From assembly GCA_044892525.1 (NCBI GenBank), contig CM097886.1, positions 15,624,001 through 15,688,000 of the forward strand: a DNA stretch of 64,000 bases, read 5' to 3'. Position numbers and translations under genes: made by a program. Position 1 is the stretch's first letter; each line of letters begins with the position of its first letter. Shown here one piece after another: positions 8,483 through 37,280 of this stretch. The notes under the pieces were generated by a model. The model was given only the letters and a program-made list of their open reading frames with translations. It was not told where the DNA came from and made no database searches. Source of the DNA: Schmidtea polychroa. Its lineage: Eukaryota.

Positions 8483-9987
8483 GGGTATATATATTATTTA
8501 TATATATATTGTTGGGTTTTTGGTTAGTTTAAGTCGGTTCTGACTCCTCGTGTCCTTTAAATCAAAACAATAACGACCCACAATCTTTTCTCACCACTTT
8601 ATAATTAATAATCAAAGTTACGTTTGACTTATTCTCCGCTCGGCGTTGATGCTTTGTAAATAGATAATATTCACCTTTTATTCCGTTAGACTCTCTTGAC
8701 CCACGTTTTCCTCTTTTTCTGTTTGATTTGATTCTTTTTCACCTTTTCGTATTCCTATTCTATGTCTTCTTTACCCTAATCTCCTTAATTCGTTTTACCT
8801 ATTCTTAACTCGGTTTCTTCAAACCCTAGCTGAGGCAAAATGCCGATTTTTTCTGATTTTCCCTTTCCTTACATACTCCTCGAAATCGGGATAACAAATG
8901 GTTATTGCCGAGCCAATCTTTCACTTGACATTTTCTTCCACGTATCTGCTTCGGGTGTCACCCATAATGGTCCAACGAACCAAGATAATTAATGGCCCTT
9001 CCGGCCTTTCTACACGCAATATCTTCTCCTTGCTCTTTTCCAATTAATCATTGTGGCAAGCTAATGGGCCCAAATCTTCCTTCTGTTTGCTTTTCTTCTT
9101 GTTTACCCAGCTCGGGTTTCCTTCATCTCTCGGGTTCTCCACTGGCTCGGGTTTTCTATTAGCCAATTAATTAATTAATTAATTAACGTTTTCTGATTTT
9201 ACACATTTGAATGCTTTTCGACCCTTCCTAACCATTTTCTGATAAATCCCTAAACATCATCTTGTTGACCATTAGCTACTCTATACCTGTCCCGTTTTCC
9301 CTATTCGATTTCGATGATTTTACTATTTATTGATTTTTTCTCGGATTTCCAGATTCTTTCCTTTCGTAATTGCTTCTGGCATTTTCTAATACTGCTTCCA
9401 TCACACTTTCCTTTACTATTGATTCTGTGCATGATCACGCTTTTATTTGTCTTTTTTCTTCATTTACTTTTTATNNNNNNNNNNNNNNNNNNNNNNNNNN
9501 NNNNNNNNNNNNNNNNNNNNNNNNNNNNNNNNNNNNNNNNNNNNNNNNNNNNNNNNNNNNNNNNNNNNNNNNNNNNNNNNNNNNNNNNNNNNNNNNNNNN
9601 NNNNNNNNNNNNNNNNNNNNNNNNATGGGTTCAATAAGAGCCATTTTCCGAAAATTTATTTTTTTAAGAGCCGCATCTGCCCACCGTTGTAATAATAAAT
9701 TTAAATAACTATATGACTGAAATTTAAAAAAAATAATAAAAAGACATTAATTTAATTTTAATTAGTTTAAAATTTTAAAATGCTTCATAAAAAAATCTTC
9801 TTACCAAATTTTTCAAAAAACACGAATAGAAAACTATACTAAAATATACAAACGACCGCAATCGGCATTCGGAATATTACTTAAATTGTTTTAAGTTTAT
9901 ATATTTATTAATTATAGTTTTTTATATTGTTGTTGGAATCATGGGGGGGGGGGTTAAACCCACAGTAACCCCCTGCGTACGCGCATG
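8417..9987. mobile_element. Non-autonomous hAT element with a nested LTR
   Basis: TIR CAGGCGCGTACGCAGG / CCTGCGTACGCGCATG; perfect 8-bp TSD CATGAATG at 8409-8416 and 9988-9995. Confidence 0.9.
8510..9474 (-). mobile_element. LTR (probably solo), inserted in a (TA)n tract; other end lost in an N block
   Basis: TGTTGGG terminus; CTCGGG repeat cluster at 9110-9155; shares GACACGAGGAGTCAG-like and CCCGAG motifs with 41962-42769. Confidence 0.7.
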
Positions 9988-16635: not shown

Positions 16636-17488
16636 TGTAATGTATAGTTATTTTTACTAGTATTTTAGTGTTCACAATTAGGGATTGTGAACACTAAAAT
16701 ATAAATTGTCACCATCTGGAAAACCCAGATTTTCAAAAAAAAAACTATATAGCGATAATTCACTAATTCGCTAAAGGAAATTGAAAAATTAAAAAAAAAT
16801 CAATAAGAAAAGATTTATCAAAGATAGAAAAGCTACGATCTAATCAAAGGATTTCCCTGACGGTTTTAAAAAGTTAATTCATCTAGAACCACTAGAAACT
16901 TTTGAAACAGTTACAAGTACCAAAAGTATTTTCATTTCAACTTCTAGAATTGTATCTTCTATAAATACACAAATACCTTCAACTGAATCTCAGCCTAATC
17001 CCTCAAATTCATTACATTGTCAAAGAACAAGTAAATCAGGAAACTCGAATTATTTACTGAATCTCAGCCTAATCCCTCAAATTCATTACATTGTCAAAGA
17101 ACAAGTAAATCAGGAAACTCGAATTATTTACTGAATCTCAGCCTAATCCCTCAAATTCATTACATTGTCAAAGAACAAGTAAATCAGGAAACTCGAATTA
17201 TTTACTGAATCTCAGCCTACTCCCTCAAATTCATTACATTGAGATTATTTCGAGACCTAACTGACCTACCTCCGGACTCAAGGTTCTTAATTTTGTTTTG
17301 AATAAAGTTTTGTTACAATCTATATTATTGTTGATTATTATTTTTATTTTTTATTTGTTACACAGCACACACCCCGATTGTCCCAACACATTTTATCGGT
17401 GACTCTTTCGGGCTCGACAATCTTCTTATTAAACATACAAGAACATACGAAAACATACAACAATTTTCTTATTAAACTTACACTAACA
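16636..17488 (+). mobile_element. Solo LTR
   Basis: TGTAATG...AACA ends; 5-bp TSD CAGTG at 16631-16635 and 17489-17493; homologous to 32364-33153. Confidence 0.9.
16983..17241 (+). repeat. 74-bp tandem repeat, about 3.5 copies, inside the solo LTR
   Basis: Units start at 16983, 17057, 17131 and 17205; the three full units appear identical. Confidence 0.95.
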
Positions 17489-19786
17489 CAGTGCATTGCT
17501 CTTCTTAGTTATAGTATTGCCAGCGTCCGAAAAGTTGCATTTTGACATAGATGAAGAAGCGGGTATGCATAGTACAGACCTAGCTGCTCTGGCCATGATA
17601 GGCAAATTCTTTGCATTCTACCACCATTCTAAAATATCAAAATCCTCACAACTGCGATCGTGCTTTAGTAAGCGAAGTAGAGAGTAAAGCTTTATCTCAG
17701 TTTCAATTTGTTCCAAAAGAATTGGTTCTTTTAGTATTTCTGCTTCAAGTTCTGACTCATCATCTGAAGAACTTCCCGCAAATGAAATAATGTCTTTCTT
17801 GTGAACTGTTCTTTGCCGTTTAACTTGTTGTTGCACTAACTTGTTGTTGCACTATCTTGTTAATCTGCTCATTTTCCGTACTGCCACTTTAACTCTCCCC
17901 AACCTTCTGCATTAAACAAAGTAATTGCGACTGACATTTATTAATTGTGTCGATCGAAACTTCAAACTTTGATTCTAATCTTGCTTTTTGACGGGGATCG
18001 AGATACGCAGCCAAAACATGTAAATCTTCTAGCTTCCACTTAGACTTTATTGTTTCATGTACAAGTTCTGCAATCTTTTGCTTTTGTGGCTTTTTTGGAT
18101 CTTCCATAATTGATTTGCAATGAGCTATAAGTCTGAACCTCTCATAAACAATAAGATGAAAAGTTGGTGTCTTAAACTGCTCTAATACCAAAGTTGAAAC
18201 TTGGTATTCGGATAAAAAAGAAGCTAAATCTTCTAACAAATTCTTATCAATCTTGGCAATCAGCAACTGCTTTCTTCTTGGCTCCAAAATTGCGTAAATT
18301 TCGTGATAGACTTTAATCATACTTACTAGTAGTCTTAGAAGCGAGTTTCACCGAGTGCAGTTTTCTTGTTTGAGTGTCGAAGTCAGATAAATTTGAAGAT
18401 TTGCTTGCTTAAAATATGTCACTAAAGTTTTACAATTGTCAATTAATTCAAATATTTCTGGGGCTAAATAAAAAAATCGATAAAATGGTGATGAGCGATT
18501 TCCATTTACAACTTCATTTGTTTTGTTGAATACGGTTGTCAACTTATGATCAGCACATGGCAGCCAAGAATATTTAGAACGAATTCCACCAATGGCAGCC
18601 ATATTAGAACCACTATCAGAGCATAAAATTGCTAATGAAGAATTATTACAACCATATTTAGCTAGATATTGCTCAAATTCTTTCAACACTTCATTGGCTG
18701 TGTGTGACTCAGCATGGAATACTTTAACCTGAAGAGGTCGAGCGTTCAATAAATATTCAGAATTGATGTAATGAATTGTTATTGACATAAAAGAGCGTTT
18801 TTTAATCGAGTCAGTCCATAGATCGGCTGTAAATCCAGCTGCAATATTATCATCAAAATGCTGCTTACATTTAGCTTTAACAAGTTCTCTAACTTGTGCT
18901 GCCATATCAATAACATTATTCTTGACAGTGTTTGAACTAGGCATTAGATCAACAATGTCCACAGGCCTGATTAGAGTCACCCCAATTTCCAATATCACCT
19001 TACATAGTTGCTGAAATCCGGAATCGCTTAATTAAAAAAATGGTGCTATGTCTTTTGCACACATTACCGCTGCTGCCCTAGCTACTTTTGTTTTGTCTCC
19101 AGATCTTGCGTTGCCTTTTTGTAAATATTGTTGCATTGCGCCGGTCTGACTCGATGCCGATGTTGATCCAGATTTGCAAGATTTCGCATGTTGGTTGATC
19201 GTTGATGTGCCAAGTGATGATTTGTAAGTAAACACAGTTTGACAATAATTGCAGACAACAAAGTTGTTACTATCAAACTCTAGAAGAGCATTCAAATACT
19301 TCTCATACACAAATAAAAACGTCTTCCAACATTTGGAAGCACTTTTCTTCGTATTACAATTCTTCCTTAGTTCTAACACTTTGCAAGAATCATCGCATTT
19401 ATATAATTCAACTTTAATATACTCTTTAGTTGCATTAATAGTTTGAGTCATTTAATATGTTTTAAACTTATTAAATATAGAATTCGTAAATTTAACACGA
19501 CAGAATCTGCTTTCGGCAAGCGGCGTGCACAAAATTTTGAACCAATGAGATTTCAGTGTTCACGTGATTTATGCTTGCGTGTGCACTGTGCACTCGCGCC
19601 ATCTATTTTTATGATATAAAATAGCGTTTCTCAACCTTTTTGGCCTGTGGCCTCCTTTTGAGATTTTCTTTTTGGTGTGGCCCCCACATCTCTAATATTT
19701 GTTCGAAAAAAGTAGATATTAAAAATAAAACTATTTAAAAATTCCAAAACATATTTTAAATAAACGTGTACATATATAAAACATAC

Positions 19787-21309
19787 CAGGCCCGTACCGT
19801 CGGGGGGCCCAGGAGGGCCCGGCCCCCCAAACGCAAGTCTGGCCCCCCCAAATAAAAAAACGGACATGAATAAAAAATTACATTCAATATGTTTGATAAA
19901 AGAAAAATTGCTATCGTGCACACATGCATTGAGTTGCACATGTAGAGGTTTATGTAGTGTGGACGGGGGTAGGATGTTCCATCTATCTGCCTCACTGGAA
20001 GAGACTGGTATGTGAAGTCGGTGGCGTGGGTAGGGTGCGTGCTGTCTGTCTTTCCTGCCTCACAGGCAGTAACAACGCATGGAGGCATGATTGAGTGTCA
20101 GAGCACGGAGTGGGTGCATTGTGGTCTTCATACGATGGTAGAGAGATAGGCCAATGAGAGCACATCACATGTCATTATACTCAACTCACTCCTATGGCAG
20201 AGTGACATGTTAATTGATCATATTTTGTAACATTTTTTTCATCGTATTAGATTCTAATATTATTAGAATAATATTATTAGAATTATATTATTAAATCTTA
20301 TATTTTTTTCACTCTATGTTTAGAAAATTTTTAAAAATGAAAATTTAAGTTTAAAGGTTAAGAGACTTCCTGATAGAAAAAACAAAATATATAAACATGA
20401 TTTAAGAAAATATTGCTTAATTGAAAAATAACTTTGAAAAATATATACTTTTTAGTAAAAAAAAGTAGTATTTGAACGGTGGATATTTTATCATTTTATT
20501 TTGTTTAAATATTATCTATTTTTAAGATCATTCCAAATTCAGTAATTTTATTAATTTTTAATACATTTTCATATATTTCTTCTGTATTTATTTAGTCTAC
20601 AATTAAAATCTTTTTTATTTTCATCTTTTTTATTTTATTATTATTTATTTTATTTTTATGGTTGTATTAAGATAATAAATAATAAGATAATAAATAATAA
20701 GATAATAATAATTAGAACATGTCGACAGAAAAGAGTATCATGAATTTCTTCCAAGTCATTCCAAAGAATTCTGTGACTTCAGTCACTTCATCCAGTGATA
20801 GTATCTCTGCTACTATGTCCTCAACTTGTGCTAGTCCTTCATCTGTACCTGCTATTTCATGTATCCGTGACAGTGCAGTGATGTCCTCATCTACTAAATG
20901 TGATCTGGGTGAAGAAATGCCACGCCAGCCAACTGCTGTAAATTTCCCAAAGACTTCGTTTGGTTCAAGGGAACGCTCATTTTCGTCTGTGTGGTATAAT
21001 GGAAGACCATATTTGGAGTACTCTATTGAGAAAGATGCAGTCTTCTGCTTTTGCTGTAGAAAATTTTCATTGCCCGGCTCTGCTGGCGAAAGTGCTTTCA
21101 TAACAGGAGGATTCCAAAATTGGAAATCGGGTTTAGAAAAAGGAAAAGGTTTTCAAAAGCATGAATCTTCTGTTGGCCACATCCATGCCATGGAATGCTG
21201 GAAAGAGAAACAGCTGAGATGTGAAAAAGGTGAGGAAGTTTGCACTTTGATTAATGAAACACAGCTGAAGAACAACCGTTATTACATATTTTTTCAACAA
21301 ATTATGTAA
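19787..21309 (+). mobile_element. 5' part of a ZMYM1-like hAT element with a TTF-type zinc finger ORF (20719-21309); 3'-truncated
   Basis: Starts CAGGCCCG; ORF has RERSFSSVWYNGRPYLEYSIEKDAVFCFCCRKF..GFQNWK..KHESSVGH. Confidence 0.8.
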
Positions 21310-21331
21310 AAAAATTGATCGTTTTCTTTAT

Positions 21332-24300
21332 TTAGTGTGATCCTTGTGCTTGATGCAATTTAGCCAATTTATTAATTTCGGGCTTCAATGTTGTTAGCGA
21401 CATACGCAGTCGCCTCTTTGCACAACATCAAGACAGTTTCGTGCTTTTGAGAGGAGATGCATAACTCGACTAAATCCAGATTCAACCAAATAAGATGTGG
21501 GAAATGCAATGAAATATAACCTAGCTTCTCCCATAACTGTGGGAATGTACTGGCTATTTCATTGCTGATCCAGAAATTATCTTTATTTAATTTAAATCTA
21601 ACTTGAGCATTCATACCACTTTGCAAGTCCACAAGACTTTCTTGCAGTTCGATATTGATATCAGCTGCATTCACACTAAATGGATCAATTACCCAATCTG
21701 GAATATTTAAATTAATAATATCAATAAATCTAACTCGCATATTCTCACGAAGCTGTTTCAAATGATTAATATATATTTCCAAATCATCATCTTGTATTTC
21801 ATTTAAAATTGTGGCCAATGATGAAAATTGCGCTAACTCACGACGACCAATATTCGTTATGAAAAGATTCAGCTTTCCCAAAAAAGCATTAATTACTTTT
21901 TTACACGTTATGAGATTACAATTTTTTCCTTGTAACTGTTTGTTTAATAAATTAAGTTTTTCAAATATATCTGATAAATAAAATATGTCACATTTTACAC
22001 TAACCAGCTCCACTCCGAATTCTGCATCTTTCATAAAAGATATAATACTATTCCAAAGCATAACAAACCGTTTTAATCTATTACCCTTCGATAACAACCG
22101 AACTTCTGTGTGTAATAGGAGGCGCTCAAAGCCTTCCTCATTTGTCGGAAGAGGCGATCTCGAAGTGGACTTGATTTAATGAAAATTATTGTTTTTATTA
22201 CAATATTATGAGATTCATGTAAACGCCCTCTTAACGTTTTTGCAACCAAATGTTGACGATGAATTACGGAATGTAATAAAGAAATATTTGGCACATCATT
22301 CTTCAGATATGTGATAAATCCTCGATATTTACCAACCATTGAAGCAGCGCCATCGGTTGCGCATGCTAGTATATTTTCAAGCGGGATATTTTTCTCCATA
22401 AAAATTTTTTTAACTTCTTGATATATCTTTTCACCTTTTGTGTCAGTTTTAAGTTTTCTGGCAAAGAGCATTTGTTCAATAAACTTGTCATTATCTTGAA
22501 ATCTAACATACGCCATTAATAGAGCTTCACTATCACGTATAGAGGATTCTTCTAATTGTAGGGCAAACTTCTTAACTTGCAAATGAGCAATTAGTAGTTT
22601 TTCCACATCATCTGCCTTTTCATCGATACGCCTCGATACTGAAGAATTGCTCAAAGGAATGACTTGAGTAATTGCATTTGGGTTCTGATTCATGACCCTT
22701 GAAATAACAATAGACACTGATGGCAAAATCAAAGATTCTGCAATAGTATGTTCTCTTCCAACTTTTGCAATTAACTGCGAAATCTCATAAGAAGCAATTA
22801 ATCCATTGTTAATCATCGATGACTTTTCATTAAATACTTGTAAAATTGTTTTTCTTGATCGAAAACCATCTTGAAGTTTTTTAAAAAATTCAACTGGCTT
22901 GTCTTTTTTGTCTTCATGTGCAGTTTCTAAATGTTTTTGTAATTTGCATGGTCGCATACTTTCGTTTCATAATACAGGCCCGACAAGAGGGGGGGGGGGG
23001 GGTTGAGGGGGGCCCCGGAGAAAAAATCTATTATGATTTAAATCACTTAATTTTTTATGAAAAAACCATGATTTCAATTTGTAGGAACTATGTTCCTCCT
23101 TTTGTAGTGCGTGTGTGTGGGGTACGTCTGGAGAGTGTCCGTTGCCAAGATTGCACAAGGGTACGATAATGGATCCAATATGAGTGGCTCATATAAAGGT
23201 GCTCAAGCTCATATTTTGCAAATCAATCCACTGGCAATATTTTCCCCTTGTGCATGTCATAGTTTACATTTGTATGGTGTTCATGCAGCAGAATCTTGTC
23301 ATGAGGTTGTAACGTTTTTTGGTACGGTACAAAAATTATACAATATTTTTAGCAGTAGCTCTCAAAGATTGGAAATATTAAAAAATAATACTGGACGTTC
23401 ATTGTACTCTATGTCAAATACACGTTGGTCTGCTAGAATTGAATGTATTAAACCAATTGCTGAAAATTTCCTGCAATTAAAAGTGCCATAGATTCTGTTC
23501 TAGAATTAAACTTAACATGGGAAATTCGTTCAGATCTGAACAGAATAAAAAAATATATGGAATTGTTTGAATTCTTAGTAATGGCTAAAATTTGGTACAA
23601 AGTCCTTCAAGCTATAAATTATAGAAATATTGTTTTACAAGCTCGTGATGCGACAATTGATGTAGAAGTAGCGAATTTGTCAAGTCTTCTTGATGAATTA
23701 CAAACAATAAGAGATAGTTGGGAAACTCTCTTCAATGAATGTAAATTGTTTGGTTCATCTTTAGAGATAAATACAGATTTTGAAACAAAACATAGTAAAA
23801 GGAAAAAATGGGGGAACGAATTAGAAATGACACCAAGTGACGAATTCAGAACAAATGTTTTCAATGTTTTCTTAGATTGTATTATTGGAAATATTGCAAG
23901 AAGATTTAATGCGGCTAAAGAAATTGATTCGTTATTCAATGTATTATGGTTATTTCATAACCTTAATGATGAAGAAATACAAAAGAAGTCCGAAAAATTA
24001 CAAAAAGTATATGAAAATGATATTGACCATAATCTTGGTGAAGAAATACTCCATTTAAAATCAATTTATGATGCCAATATACAAAACAAATCTCTCTCGC
24101 CCATTGAGTTACTAAACATCATTAAAAAATGAAACTGGATGTATTGTTTCCCAACATAATAATAGCAATAAGATTATTTTGTACGATCCCTGTAACCGTT
24201 ACTGAAGCAGAACGATCCTTTAGTGTTTAAAAAAGGATAAAAGATGTTTTGAGATCCACAATGTCACAACACCGATTGAATGATTTAGGAATGTTGTCGA

Positions 24301-24744
24301 TTGAATCTGAAATGGCTAAGAAAATTGATTTTCAAGACGTAATTAATTTGTTTGCTAGGCGCAAGGTTCGGAAAGCAACATTCTAAAAAATAATTTGTTT
24401 TTTGTACATTTTTTTGTAATTTTAGTTCTAAACGTTTTCATTTTTGTAAGAGAATTATTGATGAATACATTGTTCCAATAACAATTAGGATATTTTTCGG
24501 TTTCCCGCTTCATTTATAAATAGCCCAAAGTCCGAGGGGGAAATTATTTTTCACGCTCTTGGCAGGGGCCCACACAAGAAGCACAAGAAGTATATCCCCG
24601 GGCCCCAAAAGTCCTCTCGGCGGCTCTGCAGCCATACACAATAAACACATAGGCTTTTTAATATCTACTGTCGATTGAATAAACCCATACACGAGATAAT
24701 CGATGGAATATTGTCGACATTTTTTCTTAGTCTCACTACTAATG
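21332..24744 (-). pseudogene. Charlie/Buster (ZBED5/SCAND3-like) transposase, interrupted at 22975-24628
   Basis: KKCRQYSIDYLVYGF..PMCLLCMA|VL*NESMRPCKLQKHLET, FALQLEESS, ATDGAASMVG, HSVIHRQHL, and C-terminal LAKLHQAQGSH*. Confidence 0.9.
22975..24628 (+). mobile_element. Internally deleted ZMYM1-like hAT element retaining the 3' half of its transposase
   Basis: TIR CAGGCCCGACAAGAGG / CCTCTCGGCGGCTCTG (12/16). Remnant peptides GYDNGSNMSG, CACHSL, TRWSARIE, AERSFSV..LRSTMSQHRLNDLGMLSIE. Confidence 0.85.
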
Positions 24745-25699: not shown

Positions 25700-25965
25700 A
25701 GAAGGAACCCCCATGTTGAAATTACAATAAATAAAGAAAAAACAATGTGTGCGCTTGATACTGTGGCAAAGATTAGTGTTTTAGAGTACGATATTTATAA
25801 AAGATCTGAAAAGATTTGAAGATTGGAGAAATGTGATATTGAAGTGAAATGTGCAAACGGCAGTGGAATAACTGTAATGGGAAAGATAAATATAACTGTA
25901 ATTTTAGGGGGTATTTCAAAACCAATAGAATTCTATGTTACTCGAGAAGTTGTTCCAAAAGTTGT
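25700..25965 (+). pseudogene. Retroviral-type aspartic protease fragment (N-terminal two-thirds)
   Basis: PHVEITINKEKTMCALDTVAKISVL..VKCANGSGITVMGKINITV; catalytic DTG reads DTV; one in-frame stop. Confidence 0.8.
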
Positions 25966-26051
25966 TCCAAATTGCCGCGCTCGGGTTTTCTTCATTCGCT
26001 CGGGTTCTCCATTGGCTCGGATTTCCCTTTAGCTCAGGTTTCCCATTAGCC
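25963..26051 (-). mobile_element. Inverted fragment of the CCCGAG-repeat LTR family
   Basis: Matches the reverse complement of about 42148-42225; joined to the protease fragment through shared TTCCAAA. Confidence 0.8.
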
Positions 26052-26451
26052 AGAAAGAAGAAGAAGATAAAATCATACAACTAAACCAGAATGAGACAAA
26101 CATTGGAGTAAGTACCTCGCAATTATTGGAGCCACCAAGGGATAGGGTGAGCCCGAAGTTGGTCGAAAATAGGAGAAAGAAGGAGAGGAGAGGGAGACCG
26201 AGAAAGAGTCAAATGAACCGGCCTCCAAGAGAACTCCTAAGGCCAGTAACTATGCAAAATGTTACTAGACAGGCATTAGCAGGAATAGCTAGCCAAATAG
26301 ATAAAAGCGTTGGAGACGCCAGTAGTAAAACAGAAACATGGAGGAAATTAAATCAGATATTGCGATTGATTAAGATATTGCGATTGAATGGCAAATCAAG
26401 AAAGATAAAGATATAAACGTTGAGAAAATCACTGAAAAGATAAAGAAAACA

Positions 26452-28791
26452 ATGGGAAAGATCCCAGGAAATACCACGGAACAAGAAATGTTCGAAGTGG
26501 CAGAACAATTCCTAAATGAAGGAATGACGAAAGGGAAAATGATAACGATTTTAGCCTTAATGTTTAAAAATGCCTTAATGATACTTAAGGTTGATCAGTC
26601 AGGAATTCAAGCAACCTTAGATAGGTTGACTAATATTATAGAAGTGAATTTCGGAACATGGATGACCGAACACAAGTTTTGGGAGATAAAAGAGACAAAA
26701 GGAAAATATGAGTTAAATGAGGAATTACTAACGGAAAACATTTCGAGTAATCCACGGGGAACAGGTGGATTTACCAGTTGGATGATGATGTTGTTAGTAA
26801 TGATGGGAATATTGAGACAGACAAATTCCTTAACGGCATATGATTGTAGTGAACCAATACTATCACGAATATACTCATTAGTAGACACAGTGGAATGCAA
26901 GGAAGCATATCCCGACAAAGTGGCTAAAAGGGAAGATGTAGAATTTTACGTTTATCAACAAACAGAATTTTACCGAACAAGGATAAGGGAATGTCGAATA
27001 CAGAGAGCGACATTTGAATACTATTGCGGATCAAATAGTTATTCAGTATATTTAGGAGCCAAACTTATTCCTGTACCTTTGATAATCCCACCAGAGGATT
27101 GTGTAAATGCTTTTCGATCAAAGACGGTCAAAATAGATGATGAAGTGACAATTACTGCTGAAGAGGGAAAGAAATTGGGTATAACTATTACCCGGGGAGG
27201 ACCAATAGCAGATGATGGTTCTTGTCAGGGTAGAAAGAAACTACGAGGTTCTAATGTAGTAAGCTATGTGGTAACAGTTGAGGATTACACAGTAGAGCTG
27301 ATCGATTACGAAGGAACTTTTGAAGTTTCTACGGGAAAAATGATGTCGCATTCAGAATGTAATGCGAAGTTTGGCTATTGTAAAACCAGTTTAGCAGTAT
27401 TGACTTATCAATCAATGAGAGATTTTTGTGATTTGGGATACTTGAAAAAGTTAGTATTTTCAAGGCTTGATGGGAAAAGTTTTACGTCTCAAGACACGAA
27501 ACAGAGTGGTTGGGGAGACAAGATGGCTCACAAAACGAAAAAAGAGGAAGTACCAGAGAAAAACACAGCGGTAGTGTTAGTCTCAAAGGATCCAACAGAT
27601 GCAATACGATTAGTCAGAAAGAAACAGACCACAAAGTGTGGAGTATTAACATTTGAAACAAATTATAAAGGAATATATTTAGCACACAAATATGTTCTAG
27701 CAGCTGAATCAGAGTGTGAATTACGGCTGTGCGACCAGAAATTTAGACACGATATCAAAGTCACAAGAAAATGTATGGCTGAATGTATCGTGGGAATGGA
27801 TATATTGAAAAAGTTAAAAGATATTGTCTTCGATTGTGCAACAGGTGAATTAGTAAAAATGAAGGGTAGAAAACGAAAAACCTACAGTGTGGATGTAGTG
27901 TTTCTAGATAGAACGGTAACCATACCACCAAGAACCGAGACAGTTTGTTTTGTAGCCACACACCAAGAGGTGAAGGGAGATGTTATTTTCGAACCTAGTG
28001 AGCAGTTCGTGAATAGATATAAAACGCCCATGGTGCAAAACTTGGCAACAGTACGGGGAGGAAGAATTCCCATTCGATTAACAAATCTAGCAAGCAAGTC
28101 ATTGAAACTGTACCCAGAAACGAGAGTGGGTAAAATAATGCAACTTGCAAATGTACCCAAAGAAAGTGAGACGATAATATCAGTCCAAGAGGATGAACGA
28201 GATCCAGATATTGAATATTATGATGCACCAAGTTGTGATAGTAAAGCATTAACTAGAAAAGAGAACATCAGAGTTAATCAGTTGTTACGTAAATATGACC
28301 AAGTTTTTGCAAAACACGAATATAATTTAGGGCAAGTTAATATCTTAGAGCATGAAATTAAATTAACAGAAAATAAACCGATAAAAATACGCCCGTATAG
28401 AATACCTCAAAGTATACAAAGGTCCGTGGATAAACAAATTAAATTAATGCAAAAATATAATATAATTAGACCAAGTAAATCTCCATATTCCTCACCTTTG
28501 GTGGTTGTAGCTAAAAGAGATGGCTCAGTTAGATTATGTAATGACTATAGGAAATTAAATGAACAGACAGTAAGTGACAATCACCCGCTACCTTTGTTAG
28601 ATTATATATATGATAAAATGAAAAATTCAAAATTGTTTACTGTGATGGATGCCCAGAAAGGGTTTTATCAAATAAAGATCAGCGAAGACTCAATTCCTAT
28701 GACAGGATTTTCTACAAGTAGTGATCATTTCGAATACTTAGTAATGCCGTTTGGATTAAAAGGAGCCCTCCAACTTTTCATAGGGCAATGA
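26452..28791 (+). CDS. Chimeric ORF: leader + signal-like segment + chuvirus-like glycoprotein ectodomain (26836-~27681) fused in frame to a protease C-half and RT N-terminus
   Basis: MMMLLVMMGILRQTNS then LTAYDC, ECRIQR..YYCG, EDC, DGSCQG, EC..GYC, FC, KCG; then IVGMDIL (protease end) and KIRPYRIP..SPYSSPLVVVAKRDGSVRLCNDYRKLN (RT). Confidence 0.85.
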   Translation: MGKIPGNTTEQEMFEVAEQFLNEGMTKGKMITILALMFKNALMILKVDQSGIQATLDRLTNIIEVNFGTWMTEHKFWEIKETKGKYELNEELLTENISSNPRGTGGFTSWMMMLLVMMGILRQTNSLTAYDCSEPILSRIYSLVDTVECKEAYPDKVAKREDVEFYVYQQTEFYRTRIRECRIQRATFEYYCGSNSYSVYLGAKLIPVPLIIPPEDCVNAFRSKTVKIDDEVTITAEEGKKLGITITRGGPIADDGSCQGRKKLRGSNVVSYVVTVEDYTVELIDYEGTFEVSTGKMMSHSECNAKFGYCKTSLAVLTYQSMRDFCDLGYLKKLVFSRLDGKSFTSQDTKQSGWGDKMAHKTKKEEVPEKNTAVVLVSKDPTDAIRLVRKKQTTKCGVLTFETNYKGIYLAHKYVLAAESECELRLCDQKFRHDIKVTRKCMAECIVGMDILKKLKDIVFDCATGELVKMKGRKRKTYSVDVVFLDRTVTIPPRTETVCFVATHQEVKGDVIFEPSEQFVNRYKTPMVQNLATVRGGRIPIRLTNLASKSLKLYPETRVGKIMQLANVPKESETIISVQEDERDPDIEYYDAPSCDSKALTRKENIRVNQLLRKYDQVFAKHEYNLGQVNILEHEIKLTENKPIKIRPYRIPQSIQRSVDKQIKLMQKYNIIRPSKSPYSSPLVVVAKRDGSVRLCNDYRKLNEQTVSDNHPLPLLDYIYDKMKNSKLFTVMDAQKGFYQIKISEDSIPMTGFSTSSDHFEYLVMPFGLKGALQLFIGQ

Positions 28792-31080
28792 ATATCATGT
28801 TGATGGATGCACATCACGCAATGGTATATATAGACGATATTATCATCTTCTCAGAAGATTTGGACAAACATTTAGAGCATCTTGAAGACATTTTCAAACG
28901 ATTAATCATGGCAAACTTAAAAGTTAAACCAAGCAAATGTAAATGGGCAGAATCGGAAGTGATTTACGTGGGGCATGTAATATCACACGATTGCGTAAGA
29001 CCAGATCCGGCTAACACGGATAAAGTAAAGAATTTCCCACAACCAGTGAATGTGAAACAAATCAAAGGATTTTTAGGGTTGACGGGATACTATCGGAAAT
29101 TTATACTAAATTTTTCAGCAATTGCTTTTCCTCTAACTACCTTAGAAAAGAAAGGTATAAAATTTTTATGGGGAGAAGACCAGCAACAGGCATTTGATAA
29201 GTTAAAAGATGCACTATGCAAACCACCAATTCTACGATTTCCAGATTTTAAAAGACAATTCATGGTGATGACCGATGCATGCACAAGAGGAATAGGTGCA
29301 GTTTTGGGACAGAAAGACGAAATTGGCGATGAATACGCAGTAGCATATGCAAGTCGTGGATTAAAACCACACGAGAAAAGTTATGCTGTAATAGAATTGG
29401 AAGCATTAGCATTAGTATTTGCAGTGGAAAAATTTAGTCATTACCTATGGGGCAGAAAGGTAATTTTCTATACGGATCATAGACCACTACAATGGTTATT
29501 GAAACACAGAGAATAAGCGTCAAAATTAGTAAGATGGGCATTGAAATTGCAGCCCTATAATATTGAAATAGTATACCGAAAAGGTAAAGCCAATGGTAAC
29601 GCTGATGCATTATCAAGAATGGAACAGGAACCGGAAGCGGAAGATATAAAAGAAGGAAGATTAAAAGGAACTATATTTATGTTGAAAAGGGAAGCAAACA
29701 CCTTGATCGACTTGGTAGAGGCACAGAAAAGTGATGACGAAATTAATATGATCAGACAAGCTATAGAAGCCAAAGCCATACCAAGCGAGTTTCAGAAATA
29801 TTGGGAGAAACATAAAGATAAATTCATATTAGAAGAAGGTTTGATCAAATATGTAGAGGCAAAAGATAACGTTATATTAGTGCCAAAGAAATATAGAGAA
29901 CCCTTATTGTTACAATACCATGATGGAGCACTGGGAGGGCATCTCTCAGCAAGACATACATTGTCTAGATTAAAAATGAAGTATTTTTGGCCAGATATGA
30001 AAGATGATGTCAAGAAATGGTGCCAAACATGCAAGATATGTGTAACCAGGAGGAACACAGGCAGGAAACCTCATGTTCCGTTAAAACCAATGCCAGTACC
30101 GTCCTCGCCGATGGAGATGACAGCTATGGACCTACTAGGACCATTTAAAGAATCAAATATGGGAAATAAATTCATAATTGTGTTCTGTGACTACTTAACC
30201 AAGTGGCAAGAAGCATTTCCAATACCGAATCATAAGGCAGATACAATCGCCAGAATTTTTGTCGAGCAAATTGTATTCAGATATGGTGTTCCAACAAAAT
30301 TACTAACTGACAGAGGAAAAGATTTCATGAGTAATTTATTAAAAAGTGTCAATGATTATTTCGGCATATTAAAACTGAACACTTCACCATATCACCCACA
30401 AACCGATGGTTTAGTGGAAAGGTTCAATGGAACCTTGGCTAACATGTTATCATCATATGTGAACTCAGGGCAGACGGATTGGGATGTACATATACCGTCC
30501 TGTTTGTTCGCATACAGAAATGCAGTTCACTCAGTCACAGGAGAAACACCATTTTACCTGATGTATTTAAGGCATAGCAAGATGCCAGTAGATCTTATAT
30601 TTTATCCTAAAGCTTCACAAAATTGTGATGAAGGAAATTACCTATTTGAGATGAGAAGAAGCCTGGGAGAAGGCAGGTTTAAACATTCGTTACAAGCAAG
30701 AGACAATGAAGGAGTATCATGATCGTAAAGCGAAAGATCATGGGTTCTTAGTAGGTAACTATGTAATGCTAGAAGGACATTACAACAAAAAGGGATTGTC
30801 TCAGAAGTTGATGAGAAATTATAAAGGCCCATATCAAATAATGAAGGTCACGGAAACAAACTTGATTTTACAGTTAGTGTCAAACAAGAAAGCGGAACCC
30901 ATTATGGTTCACGCAAACAGATGTAAAAAGATAGCTCCACCAGAAAAGGAGAAGCCAAAATCAGAAATAGACGAATTTGAAATTAATAAGAAATTGAAAA
31001 AGAAAACGTTGGAATCATACAAAAGTATCCTAAAGGGACAACCAGAGAGGTATCCTTTACGATACCGACAGATTCCGAAA
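27690..31080 (+). pseudogene. pol: Gypsy/Ty3 pol (half PR, RT, RNase H, integrase, GPY/F) with two frameshifts and one stop
   Basis: RT YIDD; RNase H TDA..GIGAVL..ELEALA..DH; integrase HHCC (HDGALGGH..CQTC), MDLLGP, TDRG, VERFN; NYKGPY. Order RT-RH-IN is Gypsy. Frameshifts near 28770 and 30680; TAA at 29514-29516. Confidence 0.95.
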
Positions 31081-32058
31081 ACTGTAACATTTTTGTCAAT
31101 AATCAGTTGTGTTATGATGATAGGACAAGCATTTGAATTGTTTGATCCAGAAGCTAGTCATCACCCGGATATAGAATACCGGAGAACGGATAGATCATTC
31201 AGATTTTATTTGACAAATCCGCAATGGCACAGATATGATTTATATCTGACAACTCCAGAAAGAGAAGTATCTTTCCATCTAAATCTATGGGATCGAGTGA
31301 AGATAATAGATGGATTATTACCAAATACCAGTTATCTCCTAGAAATTAAGACATATATGGCAGATCCAAACGTGTTCGCAAATGGAGGAGATTGCGATGA
31401 CAAAGCAGCATGGATCGTGAGAACAGCGGTATTTAAGGAAAAAGTGGAAATTACGTATCAGAACCAGACAGTTAAATTCCATCATTTATATTGGAGGAAA
31501 AGTAACACATTTTCTGAACATGATTGGAGAATAAATAATCGAATAGCGCTCCTATACATATTAGAAAATAATAAAACAGTAAAGAAGTTAGTACTCAACC
31601 AAGCTTATCAACGGAGGAGCTGGACAGTTAAACAAAATATCGAAACGATAGCCAGTATAACGTATATGGAATTCACAGAGGAAACAGGCTGGTATACGGT
31701 GTATCATGAGATGATAAAATTAACACCTCCAGCAATAAAGGAACTAGCTAACCGACGATGGGAGGCTAGATTAGTAAATATCCCGGGTTTTAGAGGAATA
31801 AATACAATGGATTGGACGAATTTTCAAAGGGTAGCGAGTGAAAAACGTTCACGTGAAAATAAAATAATTAAAAATTGTTCATGTCAGACTGAACTTAAGG
31901 GAAATTCAGGAGCTAAAATGCCAAATTGGCTAATCATAACTATTGTAGGGGGAGTAATAATTATGATATTGAGTTTAATAATAGCTACCTTGTGGATGTT
32001 TAAAATAATAATGAGGGACATAAGGTATTGGGAAAATACTTACGAGACCGAGATTTAG
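30706..32058 (+). CDS. Pol C-terminal extension: internal signal peptide, FN3-like ectodomain, single TM helix, short tail
   Basis: Same frame as the integrase GPY/F domain. Hydrophobic TVTFLSIISCVMMIGQA (31081-31131); IIDGLLPNTSYLLEI FN3 signature; TM WLIITIVGGVIIMILSLIIATLWMF. Confidence 0.8.
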   Translation: MKEYHDRKAKDHGFLVGNYVMLEGHYNKKGLSQKLMRNYKGPYQIMKVTETNLILQLVSNKKAEPIMVHANRCKKIAPPEKEKPKSEIDEFEINKKLKKKTLESYKSILKGQPERYPLRYRQIPKTVTFLSIISCVMMIGQAFELFDPEASHHPDIEYRRTDRSFRFYLTNPQWHRYDLYLTTPEREVSFHLNLWDRVKIIDGLLPNTSYLLEIKTYMADPNVFANGGDCDDKAAWIVRTAVFKEKVEITYQNQTVKFHHLYWRKSNTFSEHDWRINNRIALLYILENNKTVKKLVLNQAYQRRSWTVKQNIETIASITYMEFTEETGWYTVYHEMIKLTPPAIKELANRRWEARLVNIPGFRGINTMDWTNFQRVASEKRSRENKIIKNCSCQTELKGNSGAKMPNWLIITIVGGVIIMILSLIIATLWMFKIIMRDIRYWENTYETEI

Positions 32059-32259: not shown

Positions 32260-35190
32260 ATGGATCAGAACAGAATGACAAAAGCCCCAATCAAAGCAAA
32301 CAGACGACTTCAAATGGCAAAATACAATTCCCAATGTCCAACAGATATGGAGGTATACAGTACTGTAATGTACTGTTATATTTGTATGTATTTTAGTGTT
32401 CACAATTAGGAATTGTGATTACTAAAATATAAACGGTCACCATCTGGGAAATCCAGATTTTCAAAAAAAAAACTATATCGCTATAGAAAATTGAAAATAC
32501 AAAAAAACAAAAATCAATAAAAGTTAAAAAATTAAATTACCATAGAAAGAAAGAAGCTACTAGAAACAAAACTAGAAAATTAAAAGTCCATTAAAAATTT
32601 ATTAAACCAAAGAAAGAAAGAAAGAAGATATAATAAAATATTTATTGAAAATAGCAAAGATATTACATTATCAAAGTATTCCCAAATAAACCAGAGTATC
32701 CACCAGCAATAAAAGTTAAACGAGGTTTTAAACATTTACATTGGCAAAGAACGAATAAACTAGAAAATCTGAATTATTTACATCGAGTTTTCCTCGGGAT
32801 TATCAAAATTATTATCTCAATAAAACATTATAACTGAACCGGGAAGTTTCATCTTATCCTATTGTTATTACCAAATTGTCCTCATTTTTTCGGTGAATTT
32901 ATCGAGTCCTATAATTATCCGAAACAAATACTTAATTCCATTATAATACCTTCAAAAACTATTTCAGAGCCTAATTAACCTACCTCCGGACTCAAGGTTT
33001 TTCTATTTTGTTTAGATAAAAGTTTGAGTATAATATATTATTGTTTATTATTATTTTATTTTATTTGTTGTTACTCAGCACACACCCCGATTGTCTTAAC
33101 ACATTTTTTTATCGGTGACTCTTTCGGGCTCATCAAATTTCTTAGCCATTACATACCAATTGCATATCACACACAAAAAAAAACAAATATAGTAACCATA
33201 ATACTATAATAAGTATCTTCAAGGAAGAATACGTAAACCGGTTCATAGGAACCACGGTAGAAACGAAGATGAATCATTTCACTTCGAATTATTGGTATTA
33301 TCCCAGGAGAGTGGATATCCCAAACGATTATAAATTCCCAGGTGGATCTCACAGACAAATGATGATAACGGTTGTAAGCAACCAAGGGAGAATAAAGTTA
33401 GGACATTTATGAAGAGAATATGGATCATGTCCAAGGAGAGAGAACATTTGGATCCACGCTATAAATAGGCCAATCACGGTGTTCATGGCAGGTATGGACC
33501 TACCCGTGGAATTGGATAAATATAGTACGTTGGAAATATACCATTCAGATGGACGAGAAAAGAACATTCAAGTTCAAGCAACAGCAATAAATGCAATAAT
33601 AGCGGTGGAAATATTGGAGTTTAGGAAACAACACCCTATTGTGAGTCGAAATGAGCCGACATGGATTTATAATGTCAACGAAGCCGACATACAACAGTGC
33701 AAGTCGTTCGTAAGAAAATACTTAACAAAAATCGAGGAGGATGAGGCCACAGTTTTTGTATCAGCAGGATTTGCAAAATCCAGGATGGAGTTGAAAGAAA
33801 CACTAATCCAAATTGCGATAGTGGATATGAGAGGCAACAATTTATTGAGTGCGGTAGTGACTCCCAAGGACCCAGTTAAACACTACCAGACGCACCAATA
33901 TAAACTGAAGGAACCAGAAATCAGAGGGAATTTGGATGAAGACGATTGTCACCACCTTATTAGGAAAATTTGTGACAAGAAAATTATAGTTGGAATTTTA
34001 ATGAAAGATTTAGTTTCGGTAGCCAATCTACCAGTGCAACGATTGTTAGGAATCAGAGACTTATCAGCAAATAAGTTGTTAGAATCCAGAGGAGTCCCCA
34101 AGATTCATGGTCATTATAAATTGGGATTCCTAACAAAGACGTTTTTGCGTACGGTTCCCGGAGAACCAAGGAATTTAGTTGTAACAAACGAGGTACTTGC
34201 GATCCGAGCGGTTTACCTACAAATCCGAAATGAATGGGTAGACCATATCAGTATGCCTCAGGAGGATTACATGTCAGCAACCCAGGCGGAAGCGGTTGAC
34301 TTAGAAATATTGCAGAAACGAAGACTACCCGAACAACCTTCTACATCAGAACAACCCCAGGCAAAGAAAAGGGGTAGGTCACCAGCAGATTTACCACCAC
34401 CTCCAACAGTGTCGATAGGAGAAGAAGAGTATGAAACATGCGTAAGTGAAGCTGAATTAACAAGTCCGCTCAAACCATCTACTAGTGTCGCAAAGAAATC
34501 ACAGAAAAAGTCAGAAGTTAAAAGTGCAAAGGAAACCCCAGAGGTAGGCACAGTCAAAAAGATATTAAAAAAAATGATACCTGGCAAACGAGATAAATCG
34601 AAATTGAAATTGAAAAGGTTGCCAAGCAACCAGGGGAGAAGATAGAAATACCATCCAGCAAGGATGAAGTAAACAAAGCAGAGCCCAGGAAATTATTTAC
34701 GGAACCCGATGATGACTTAATGGAAATTGAATTCCAACCTCCAATCAAGGAATTGCAAGAGAAAATTAAAATCAAATCAGAACCCGAAGTACGAAAGAAA
34801 ATGTTAAAGCTAACAAAAGAAAATGTCATAAAGAAGCCAGTATCAGTAGACGTAGATGGATTTGATCCTATGTGATATAAACGTCCTGACAGGAATTGGA
34901 AGCCTAGAGCCAAAGAATATAATGGCCAACCCATCACGAGGATGGCGATAAATAACAATCAACAATATGATGAGTATGACGTAGATGGAATACCTTATGT
35001 GATATATACAGTCATACTAACATGCGCCCTGGAGGATAAAGCCCTGGCCGTGAGTTTGAGCCAGAGGTATTGAAGAAACGGAAAGCGAAAATGATTCGCC
35101 AATATGCAATCGCAAATAGTTACAATACCACGGAGGTACATCTATACAAAGTTCCCGAACCAGATCCCGACGATCTGGATGTCTGACCGA
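32260..35190 (+). pseudogene. Accessory ORF of the Gypsy element: N-terminal unknown region, DEDD/REX4-like exonuclease fold (33749-34237), charged low-complexity tail
   Basis: Removing the solo LTR plus a duplicated TAC restores one frame from 32260 to 34645 with a single TGA (33410). IQIAIVDMRGNNLLSAVVTPKDPVKHYQT, KIIVGILMKDL, IRDLS, LAIRAVYLQIRNEW parallel REX4/ISG20. Frameshifted continuation to about 35190. Confidence 0.75.
32364..33153 (+). mobile_element. Solo LTR inserted into the accessory ORF
   Basis: TGTAATG...CATTACA inverted termini; both ends are homologous to 16636-17488. Confidence 0.9.
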
Positions 35191-35394: not shown

Positions 35395-35406
35395 AGGGGG
35401 TAAGAC
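35395..35406 (+). promoter_or_regulatory. Polypurine tract
   Basis: TTTT-AGGGGG-TAAGAC immediately before TGTTAGGG. Confidence 0.75.
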
Positions 35407-35407
35407 T

Positions 35408-36463
35408 TGTTAGGGATAGGCCCCTGGCCTTAAATTATTAATCAATTAGAAAGTACAAAGTACTTAAGATTTGGAAAAACAAAATAGAAAATGAAATCGA
35501 TCCACTAGAAAATGAAAACAGCTTAAATAGACATAGCACTTAAACATTGATCCGCTAGAGAATGGAAGCAGTTTGGTTGGACGTGGCACTTAAACATTGA
35601 TCCGCTAGAAAATAAAAACAGCTTAATTAGACATAGCACGTAAACAGAAAGAAAAGTCAAGATCAAAATGCAGCTGTGCTCAATAGACTATAAATGGAAA
35701 GCAACATTGTTGGAAAGGTGTAGTGAAATTGGCAGAGCAGAAGACACTAGAATATTTTAGAAAAGAAAAGGGACGATAAACATTGAGAAGAATTTGGACG
35801 AGAAAACTGACAAGAAAGTTGGACGGAAAAACATTGAGACAATAATTTAGAAAATTATTTGATTATCATTGAAGTTCAACAATAAGTCGAAATCAGAGAA
35901 AACGTGATTAAAGAATCACTGTGTTTGTCAAGTACCAGACGACATTTCCAGCTCAAATTTCCGATTAATTAATACGAAGAAATTTGTCTATAAATTGTGA
36001 ACGAGAATCGATTTGGAGTTACAAAAAATAAAAAAAAACAATTAATAGCCAGAGGCAAGAATATCGTGATCAAGAATTTTTGAAGAAGATTATTCTACAA
36101 TAGTGTTTATTCAAACAAGGTAAAATTATTTTGTAAAGGGATAAATTAGTATCCTGTGGAATAGTTAAAATAAAGCGAACGCAAAGTATTGTTCTATTAC
36201 TTTAGTGTTCCCTGGGAGCCTCAAAATCATTCCCTCTTGCTTGCCCAACTCTTTTAGTCATTTTGCGATCGTTGTGCTACACAGGAGCCATCGATTTCTT
36301 GCAGGCTGTGGTAAACAGTAAGGATTAATAAATCCGTTTTCTTGTATTCTCTGCACATTAATTGTAAAGCAACTTTTGTAAATTATTGAATACATTTTTG
36401 TAAAAAGAGAAAGAGTTTGTTTTGTTTTTAATTCAGTGATTTAAACTTACACGCGCAACCACA
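35408..36463 (+). mobile_element. 3' LTR of the Gypsy element; 3' end approximate
   Basis: TGT start after the PPT; 50-bp repeat x3 at 35500/35550/35600; TATAAA at about 35689; candidate CA ends near 36450-36463. Confidence 0.7.
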
Positions 36464-36530
36464 TTAAATATAATCTATTTATATTTATTTTTATTTATTT
36501 TTTTTAATTAAATAATTGGAGTCATTTGTG

Positions 36531-37280
36531 TTAAGATCTGTAGTCNNNNNNNNNNNNNNNNNNNNNNNNNNNNNNNNNNNNNNNNNNNNNNNNNNNNNNN
36601 NNNNNNNNNNNNNNNNNNNNNNNNNNNNNNNNNNNNNNNNNNNNNNNNNNNNNNNNNNNNNNNNNNNNNNNNNNNNNNNNNNNNNNNNNNNNNNNNNNNN
36701 NNNNNNNNNNNNNNNNNNNNNNNNNNNNNNNNNNNAGACACTGAACATGGTATCTATGCTGACAAGGCAACTCGTACACTTCATCGGCCACCTCATAATC
36801 TGACAGACAAATGGAACCTGTATCATTAGGTTTGGTGATTTTCTTGACTTGTAATTTCTCAATATCTGCCTCATTTGCTGGTTGAGGACCACTCTGTTCA
36901 AATTGATTCATAATTCTCGTTACAAAATTGTCGAAACTTTGATCTGAAAATATGTAATCTGACGAATCTGATCTAAAATCAAGAGCTAGCAATTCACCAA
37001 ATAAATATGATATTAGTTGGCCAAAAACACTATTTCTGTTATCAGGATCTCTTGGAGTAATAAAAAAGGAACCATCAGTTTCATTTGTAGTACTTCCACC
37101 GGGAATATGACTAATAATATAATAAACATTCAAGGCATCATCATCACTTTCTATTGAGTTAACAGATTCAATTTTTTCAATAAATCCGTCATTGCACGTC
37201 ACACATTTACCATCCTGAGATATGTGAACGTCCCTGTTGCATTTATGATAATAGTAATTACCTATATTAATCGTAGCCAT
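36531..37280 (-). CDS. RNF115/RNF126-like RING-H2 E3 ligase, possibly degenerate; RING partly in an N block
   Basis: N-terminal C..C..GFIEKI zinc ribbon; FDNFVTRIMNQFEQSGPQPA and LPCQHRYHVQC match the RNF126 family. Confidence 0.85.
   Translation of the reverse strand: MATINIGNYYYHKCNRDVHISQDGKCVTCNDGFIEKIESVNSIESDDDALNVYYIISHIPGGSTTNETDGSFFITPRDPDNRNSVFGQLISYLFGELLALDFRSDSSDYIFSDQSFDNFVTRIMNQFEQSGPQPANEADIEKLQVKKITKPNDTGSICLSDYEVADEVYELPCQHRYHVQCXXXXXXXXXXXXXXXXXXXXXXXXXXXXXXXXXXXXXXXXXXXXXXXXXXXXXXXXXXXXXXXXDYRS

Follow-up and report, generated by a model that had tools for sequence, protein, structure and literature searches.

A class III env fragment very probably derived from a decayed Burro-related Ty3/gypsy element of the planarian Schmidtea polychroa

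We analysed a 64,000-nt stretch of the Schmidtea polychroa genome (assembly GCA_044892525.1, contig CM097886.1, positions 15,624,001 to 15,688,000; hereafter the window) that contains a fragment of an env gene. This fragment is very probably an env remnant from a decayed member of a multi-copy family of planarian Ty3/gypsy long terminal repeat (LTR) elements, which is of the GAG-ENV-POL type with a herpesvirus glycoprotein B (gB)-type env and is a 15-kb relative of Burro. The combination of a Gypsy element with a chuvirus/gB-type fusogen, which the first-pass annotation of the window had taken to be new, has already been published (PMC6431247, PMC13524379), also for Schmidtea mediterranea, and the family described here is an unlisted sibling. 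Positions refer to the window, and features lie on its forward (+) strand unless noted otherwise.

The env fragment and its intact siblings

The env fragment is carried by an open frame of 805 aa (26374-28791). It is preceded by an internal, signal-like hydrophobic segment (26770-26829, with a hydrophobic core at 26770-26814, recognized by hydropathy) whose position is shared by all 12 aligned upstream regions; signal peptidase would cut immediately before LTAYDC. The N-terminal half of the Env ectodomain (26830-27710), assigned to class III (chuvirus-G/herpes-gB type) by Pfam PF24664, sibling identity and gB profile matches, opens with AYDC at 26836 (aa 129 counted from the ATG at 26452), followed by cysteines at 26896 and 26992, YYCG at 27019, a cysteine at 27100, DGSCQG at 27214, a CX6C pair at 27358 and 27379, a cysteine at 27427 and CG at 27637. 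The hydrophobic segment and the ordered cysteine motifs that had been noticed between 26782 and 27681 were all found in place; the homology extends slightly further, to 27710.

Against PF24664 (Monjiviricetes_fusion) the fragment 26782-27681 scored 71.7 bits (E 4.3e-20; cut-off 27), and it scored 114 bits with an independent control profile, for which 74 public glycoproteins that stand alone and come from outside this genome were used. The top of 500 shuffles reached 4.8 bits and the reversed sequence 3.9 bits on the control profile; the similarity is not due to chance. The fragment is identical to a sibling with a complete env at 292 of 300 residues. Complete sibling envs match PF24664 at E 1e-76 to 4e-87 and show weak matches to BDV_G (Borna G; E 0.001-0.02). 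Nine env cysteines are conserved at 97-100% in a 100-row alignment, and a tenth is listed at 90% or more. With a complete sibling env as query, 1.84 billion representative sequences yielded 1,104 matches at E <=0.001, many of them stand-alone proteins of ~650 aa; word-indexed homology searches gave 2 matches for env, and phage records gave none. When 100 of the 1,104 matches were made into a profile and this was compared with PDB at E up to 10, all 33 matches were herpesvirus glycoprotein B (best E 0.0056). This profile homology argues that the fragment is a real half of a class III fusogen.

The 781-Mb genome was searched with the env fragment as query. With 131 of the 2,382 candidates scored, the resulting number of at least 132 matches (60 with 76-100% identity, the other 72 with 60-63%) is a lower bound. 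Of the 60 closer matches, 11 belong to open frames that are 3,513-3,516 aa long. Overlapping reads of three copies revealed a single open reading frame (ORF) that starts with a zinc-knuckle Gag and a ubiquitin-like region (found by Pfam in one copy, E 0.01) and continues with Env, aspartic protease (PR), reverse transcriptase (RT), RNase H and integrase (IN). In full, the intact copies encode in one ORF of 3,516 aa Gag with its CCHC knuckle, two ubiquitin-like regions, a Bcl-2-like domain, a signal segment, Env, a transmembrane segment (TM), PR, a spacer, RT, RNase H, IN, a second signal segment, a fibronectin type III (FN3) ectodomain and a second TM; an ORF2 of ~760-775 codons follows downstream.

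In two sibling elements, spanning 15.3 and 14.9 kb, both LTRs are complete (~1.1 kb, with TG...CA ends); one pair is identical at 1,077 of 1,077 positions, and the other shows zero mismatches and one gap in 1,104 columns. Both elements are flanked by 4-nt target duplications, one of which is weak, being inside an AAT repeat, and the primer-binding site identifies tRNA-Trp as the primer, being complementary to the 3' end of the corresponding genes in the genome. The siblings thus combine paired LTRs, target duplication, primer-binding site, polypurine tract and the PR-RT-RNase H-IN order of Ty3/gypsy elements; from the LTR machinery the window copy keeps just the polypurine tract and the 3' LTR. 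For the sibling RT-RNase H the best PDB match was Ty3 RT (E 5e-87), with retroviral RTs at E 6e-29 or weaker; a BEL/Pao RT comparator was absent among the 12 PDB matches. Two arrays were also seen in the genome. At G000:C2 100.87-100.91 Mb three full-length copies of identical score are spaced at 14,218 nt, consistent with a head-to-tail array with shared LTRs, and from 55.02 Mb on G000:C4 there is a tandem array, with a 284-nt unit, of the tRNA-Trp that primes the element (the pattern matched 823 times genome-wide).

The linkage of env to pol was sampled at 20 further env loci, hand-picked down the match list, with 10 kb read at each. A same-strand RT of the family was present downstream of env in 18 of them, the other two being truncated copies; the env TM was kept in 19, a Bcl-2-like domain lay upstream of env in 18 (one of the stretches read started inside env), and the post-integrase protein fell within the 10 kb in 13. 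The proposal that a Gypsy element carries a chuvirus-type class III fusogen is borne out by this linkage together with the PF24664 match. Full-length copies between paired LTRs with a Gypsy pol, which the first-pass annotation had suggested looking for behind RT-RNase H-IN, do exist, with env placed in frame between gag and pol instead; class III profile similarity is present in them, and their env is linked to a Gypsy pol and not to BEL/Pao elements or to non-retroviral endogenous viral elements.

Age and relatives of the family

Rates of nonsynonymous and synonymous substitution (dN and dS) were estimated by the Nei-Gojobori method for one copy pair (the window's subfamily versus a sister subfamily) over 17 regions. 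With dN/dS of 0.06 and 0.03 for the two env halves, 0.04 for protease, 0.03 for RT and 0.01 for integrase, Env appears to be under purifying selection, like PR and RT. We conclude that the family moved recently, because the sibling LTRs are near-identical and Env appears to be so constrained.

An env tree was made with FastTree from 100 rows of 151 matches (rows covering fewer than 450 query residues were dropped) and five genome copies. The five genome envs cluster together (SH 98), and their cluster nests in a larger group together with all 11 public envs that are embedded in polyproteins, apart from 78 stand-alone rows. Since the tree is rooted at the midpoint, it shows no donor or direction of env transfer. 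Related envs occur in the same type of polyprotein in at least seven public proteins with a Gypsy protease or RT. The suggestion that a Gypsy lineage acquired the gene specifically in this host finds no support in these public polyproteins and their clustering in the tree, and a recent capture of env in this host is unlikely. Within the env group, the public polyproteins P0007, P0009, P0010 and P0017 have two to four protease-like repeats behind env. P0012, another polyprotein of this kind, is labelled as a hypothetical protein of a Flavobacteriaceae metagenome-assembled genome and is probably eukaryotic contamination of that bin.

Chary and Hayashi (PMC13524379) described gypsy elements of the gB-type GAG-ENV-POL kind from Platyhelminthes, Nematoda and Bryozoa, six of them from Schmidtea mediterranea, as well as 114 arthropod gypsy elements with a chuvirus-like glycoprotein. 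With gag, a gB-type env with signal and TM, a gypsy pol and multiple intact copies, the present family has the make-up of the HSV/gB-type GAG-ENV-POL elements, and it shares with Smed_errantivirus_1-6 the gene order, the env type, the size of ~15 kb and the cysteine pattern (domain I-II, group C1a; compared by eye with the Smed_errantivirus_4 row). The window env is nevertheless none of these six, the nearest being Smed_errantivirus_4 at ~62% (156/252, hand count), and the primer is tRNA-Trp here, whereas the tRNA type is listed as 'none' for all six (PMC13524379). Another env family of this genome differs from Smed_errantivirus_2 at 1 position in ~67 residues. Smed_errantivirus_4 itself was not located in the genome: each of the 10 pattern matches obtained had Ser where Arg is listed, and most of them lay in decayed copies that share 50-75% identity with the window's family. 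Bcl, fibronectin, exonuclease and polyprotein do not occur as terms in the main text of PMC13524379.

Burro polyproteins, as described by Arkhipova and Yushenova (PMC6431247), contain ubiquitin/SUMO-like and BCL2 domains, an in-frame env matching mononegavirus fusion glycoproteins, PR and a dUTPase-like domain, and Burro was termed there the first case of an in-frame env between gag and pol. Burro/GYPSM1 (Jurka 2007 and Grohme 2018, via PMC6431247) follows the same single-ORF plan of Gag, ubiquitin/SUMO-like, BCL2-like, env, PR, dUTPase-like, RT, RNase H and IN, at >30 kb and 4,873 aa versus ~15 kb and 3,516 aa here. Unlike the Burro cargo, the present family gave no Pfam match to MATH, BIR or ankyrin domains, and, although it would work much as Burro does, it is not a Burro element in the strict sense. 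The Burro section of PMC6431247 makes no mention of a post-integrase membrane protein or an exonuclease. For Burro1 an anti-apoptotic role is attributed to Lee 2026 (cited in PMC13465017). The mosquito BEL/Pao element Anakin (Dezordi 2020, PMC7642597) has the same glycoprotein family on an LTR element; the present family, in contrast, comes from a flatworm, has a pol of the Ty3/gypsy and not the BEL/Pao type and carries env within the frame of gag and pol.

Cargo proteins and anatomy of the window copy

Behind the integrase, the polyprotein of the siblings ends with a second signal-like segment, an ectodomain of ~260 aa, a TM and a short tail, as judged from hydropathy. This layout is common to all five families or subfamilies of the genome that were examined and was found in three of the four public polyproteins having an integrase, the fourth terminating inside the layout. 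AlphaFold, run on a 9-row alignment, modelled residues 11-100 with a pLDDT (predicted local confidence) of ~70-80 and the part after residue 101 with less than 50. The domain of residues 11-100 superposed on FN3 structures with Z 9.3 and a root-mean-square deviation of 2.4 A over 82 residues (Foldseek E 1e-4), the matches including IFNAR1, IL-22R1, IL-20R, fibronectin and tenascin, with many ties within ~1 Z. The model thus shows a predicted FN3 fold for the first ectodomain domain, in agreement with a weak language-model lead. Pfam gave nothing credible on the FN3 protein or on ORF2, and a word-indexed homology search with a related FN3 protein gave no match. The FN3 proteins of distant families align barely, and for P0019, a post-integrase segment of a public protein, there is no alignment whatsoever.

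Between the subfamilies the FN3 protein is 60% identical versus 93-94% for env. Among the 17 regions its dN (0.26) ranks first, and its dN/dS of 0.22 suggests that it is still under purifying selection overall. Two tandem arrays with a ~2.87-kb unit (G000:C3, ~106.49-106.52 Mb and 107.05-107.22 Mb), in which each unit holds a degraded piece of the FN3 gene (44-45% identity, the same two stops), are a satellite derived from the retroelement family.

A profile of four ORF2 copies matched ISG20L2 (E 5e-10) and ISG20 (E 3e-5). The catalytic acidic residues are missing in three of the four aligned copies, including that of the window, and are retained in a more distant family; by these alignments the domain would be an ISG20-like pseudo-exonuclease in the window's family. 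An accessory DEDD-superfamily exonuclease ORF downstream of pol is also known from the bdelloid LTR elements Juno and Vesta (PMC5408684), but their ORF3 is of the DEDDy type, whereas the domain found here is DEDDh/ISG20-like, has lost its catalytic residues in this family and occurs together with env. We found no description in the literature of a post-integrase FN3 membrane protein or of an ISG20-like ORF2 domain in such elements, although one could be contained in Repbase, in Lee 2026, in the extended data of Grohme 2018, in further supplements of PMC13524379 or in figures of the papers.

For the Bcl-2-like domain a 6-row profile gave BOK at E 3e-5, and all 60 matches shown (of 152) belong to the Bcl-2 family. 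The window domain alone reached E 1.5. Pfam Bcl-2 matched two related families at E 1e-5 and 2e-3, both under the curated cut-off; related families keep a clear BH2 motif, and the window's own domain is degenerate.

Similarity of the window copy to its siblings starts at 26059, and in this comparison the copy is without 5' LTR, primer-binding site, gag and ubiquitin-like domains. Its earliest surviving part (26059-26373; a 96% match to aa 954-1058 of a sibling polyprotein) is the linker that connects the ubiquitin-like domains with the Bcl-2-like one, followed by the Bcl-2-like domain itself (BH1/BH2 region, degenerate in the window's subfamily; 26386-26700, found with the profile of 6 natural copies). 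The residues that had been taken for a pol tail upstream of env are this gag-env linker and Bcl-2-like domain of the same polyprotein; a GRPRK motif inside the linker is the probable source of that reading.

The env half ends at an in-frame deletion of 1,680 nt (junction 27710/27711), recognized by comparison with a 97%-identical sibling, which took the C-terminal half of env, the TM, the tail and most of the protease and joins env to the protease end. The junction pattern has a single match genome-wide, the window copy, and because the deletion is private to that copy, the env TM is absent from it. That the N-terminal ectodomain alone survives, lacking a TM, had been seen correctly before. 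Splicing was rejected as the origin of the env-protease join, as the joint misfits a GT-AG cut and occurs once in the genome.

Downstream of the junction lie the C-terminal protease remnant and the PR-RT spacer domain (27711-28134, from the polyprotein comparison with siblings). The spacer domain, termed dUTPase-like in Burro (PMC6431247), had no Pfam dUTPase match here. The Ty3/gypsy RT and RNase H (28510-29510; Pfam RVT_1 and RT_RNaseH), which agree with the Gypsy RT reported earlier downstream of env, are broken in frame inside RT and end with a stop at the RNase H end. Next come the integrase (29880-30722; H2C2 zinc domain and rve core by Pfam and sibling comparison, C-terminal part frame-broken) and the post-integrase membrane protein (31075-32058), for which hydropathy, AlphaFold and fold matches indicate a signal-like segment, the FN3 domain (~31162-31431), a probable second beta-sandwich, the TM and a short tail. 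A secondary insertion of 849 nt (32364-33212, no strand assigned) with an imperfect 4-nt target duplication is not present in siblings and was skipped by independent runs. Of four such runs, available as contigs and none recorded as RNA, two covered the family. ORF2 (33263-35186, frame-broken) contains the ISG20/ISG20L2-like DEDDh exonuclease domain at ~33743-34250, located with the 4-copy profile. The element closes with the polypurine tract (35395-35407) and the 3' LTR from 35408 (together 35395-36545), whose right end meets a stretch of N at 36546. The window copy is dead; its frame is interrupted ahead of the Bcl-2-like domain, within RT, where RNase H ends, in the tail of the integrase and also in ORF2.

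Several other repeats and genes were seen in the window. Just upstream of the element, 25745-25970 (+) is a decayed aspartic-protease-like remnant of another LTR element (by eye), and a short high-copy repeat at 25965-26052 is found again at 9114 and 42122. The insertion at 32364-33212 and the stretch 16636-17428 are related copies (83-87% over parts) of a repeat beginning with TG, possibly solo LTRs. Abutting the 3' LTR, an intronless ORF on the reverse strand (36738-37280) encodes zinc-ribbon and RING-like domains (Pfam zf-RING_11 E 2e-8, Zn_ribbon_19 E 1e-4); it resembles RNF115/126 and is possibly a retrocopy. Decayed hAT-like transposase fragments cluster at 17889-24390 on both strands (weak Pfam matches), and 50795-51436 (-) is a host-gene exon with a cadherin domain (Pfam E 6e-11).

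Proposed mechanism and alternative explanations

The polyprotein would thread the endoplasmic reticulum (ER) membrane like that of an RNA virus, its alternating topology arising from two internal signals and two TMs. The first signal would send Env into the lumen, the Env TM would return the chain to the cytosol for PR-RT-RNase H-IN, and the second signal would export the FN3 protein; the parts would be freed by signal peptidase together with the protease that the element encodes. Env trimers would mediate the fusion of particles with a further cell, the likeliest route being from soma to stem cell or germ line, and reverse transcription and integration of the RNA would follow there. Host cell death would be the target of the Bcl-2-like domain, which would keep the signal helix as its tail anchor.

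Several observations weigh against a gB-type env with such a role. The family profile matches herpesvirus gB alone in PDB, but this match spans ~75 positions at E 0.0056, and AlphaFold, run on the fragment as a single sequence without alignment, gave a pLDDT of 30; class III membership rests on profile homology. The complete ectodomain of a sibling from the window's subfamily (526 aa) has zero N-glycosylation sequons, and two other families have one each, which is few for a luminal viral glycoprotein. The dN/dS values come from a single pair with dS ranging from 0.13 to 2.4 across domains and are rough. Topology, cleavage, particles and cell entry are steps that we infer.

The near absence of N-glycan sites would also fit an Env that is retained in the same element for an intracellular job (budding into the ER or vesicles, anchoring the polyprotein to membranes or blocking related elements) and not for cell entry. 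Env is tied 1:1 in frame to Gag and Pol, and the available text of PMC13524379 reports no infectious-particle assay. Such a purely intracellular role is nonetheless unlikely in our view, as every ectodomain cysteine of the wider family is retained and the low dN/dS extends over the entire ectodomain. To our knowledge, no infectious particle has been demonstrated for these elements, which counts on the side of the intracellular role. A chuvirus G newly captured in this host as a conventional env behind pol would explain why the Pfam family is named after monjiviricete (chuvirus-like) glycoproteins and why so many of the 1,104 matching public representatives are stand-alone proteins; it is highly improbable given that env lies ahead of pol and in frame, that the genome envs group with polyprotein-embedded envs apart from the stand-alone rows, and that an ancient association is argued in PMC13524379. 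The abrupt stop of the window env into protease sequence, in a region filled with nested transposons, could suggest a chance chimera of a non-retroviral viral insert or a BEL/Pao (Anakin-like) env beside an unrelated, nested Gypsy pol. The abrupt join is, however, the deletion private to the window copy, intact copies have the same env and pol contiguous in one frame, and no BEL/Pao or viral polymerase Pfam family was among the matches on the ORFs scanned. Because env and the family pol are linked across the sampled loci and in the intact copies, a BEL/Pao or non-retroviral origin is excluded, and the probability that we leave to such a chimera is negligible.

For the FN3 protein, two functions were considered within the preferred reading of a gB-type GAG-ENV-POL element. 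It may be a host-modulating, cytokine-receptor-like decoy, akin to the Bcl-2-like and ISG20-like cargo and not a partner of Env, which we rate as slightly short of an even prospect: IFNAR1, IL-22R1 and IL-20R are among its fold matches and the remaining cargo is similar to host genes for cell death and defence, but the FN3 fold is generic and reveals no function, and a signal-ectodomain-TM arrangement at the end of Env's own polyprotein suits a virion attachment protein equally. More doubtful, in our opinion, is that the elements are two-glycoprotein, retrovirus-like agents, in which the membrane-threaded polyprotein would yield a class III fusogen that is conserved and, behind integrase, an FN3 type I membrane protein that evolves fast. 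The latter would bind receptors or trigger fusion, much like the accessory glycoproteins that assist herpes gB, with the Bcl-2-like domain tail-anchored by the signal helix of Env and the dead ISG20-like nuclease shielding the RNA. Of this proposal, the layout, the rapid divergence and the first domain's FN3 fold were found here, and the attachment, anchor and shielding roles are what we infer. A complex prediction of the Env ectodomain with the FN3 protein, made without alignments, scored 0.00 and 0.00 and is no evidence either way.

As an attachment protein or a receptor decoy, if it is either, the FN3 protein would be a part of retroelement biology that we have not found described. The young age of the family, with its near-identical LTRs and an env apparently constrained like pol, in a host with RNA interference and adult stem cells, makes the passage of gB-type errantiviruses between cells testable.

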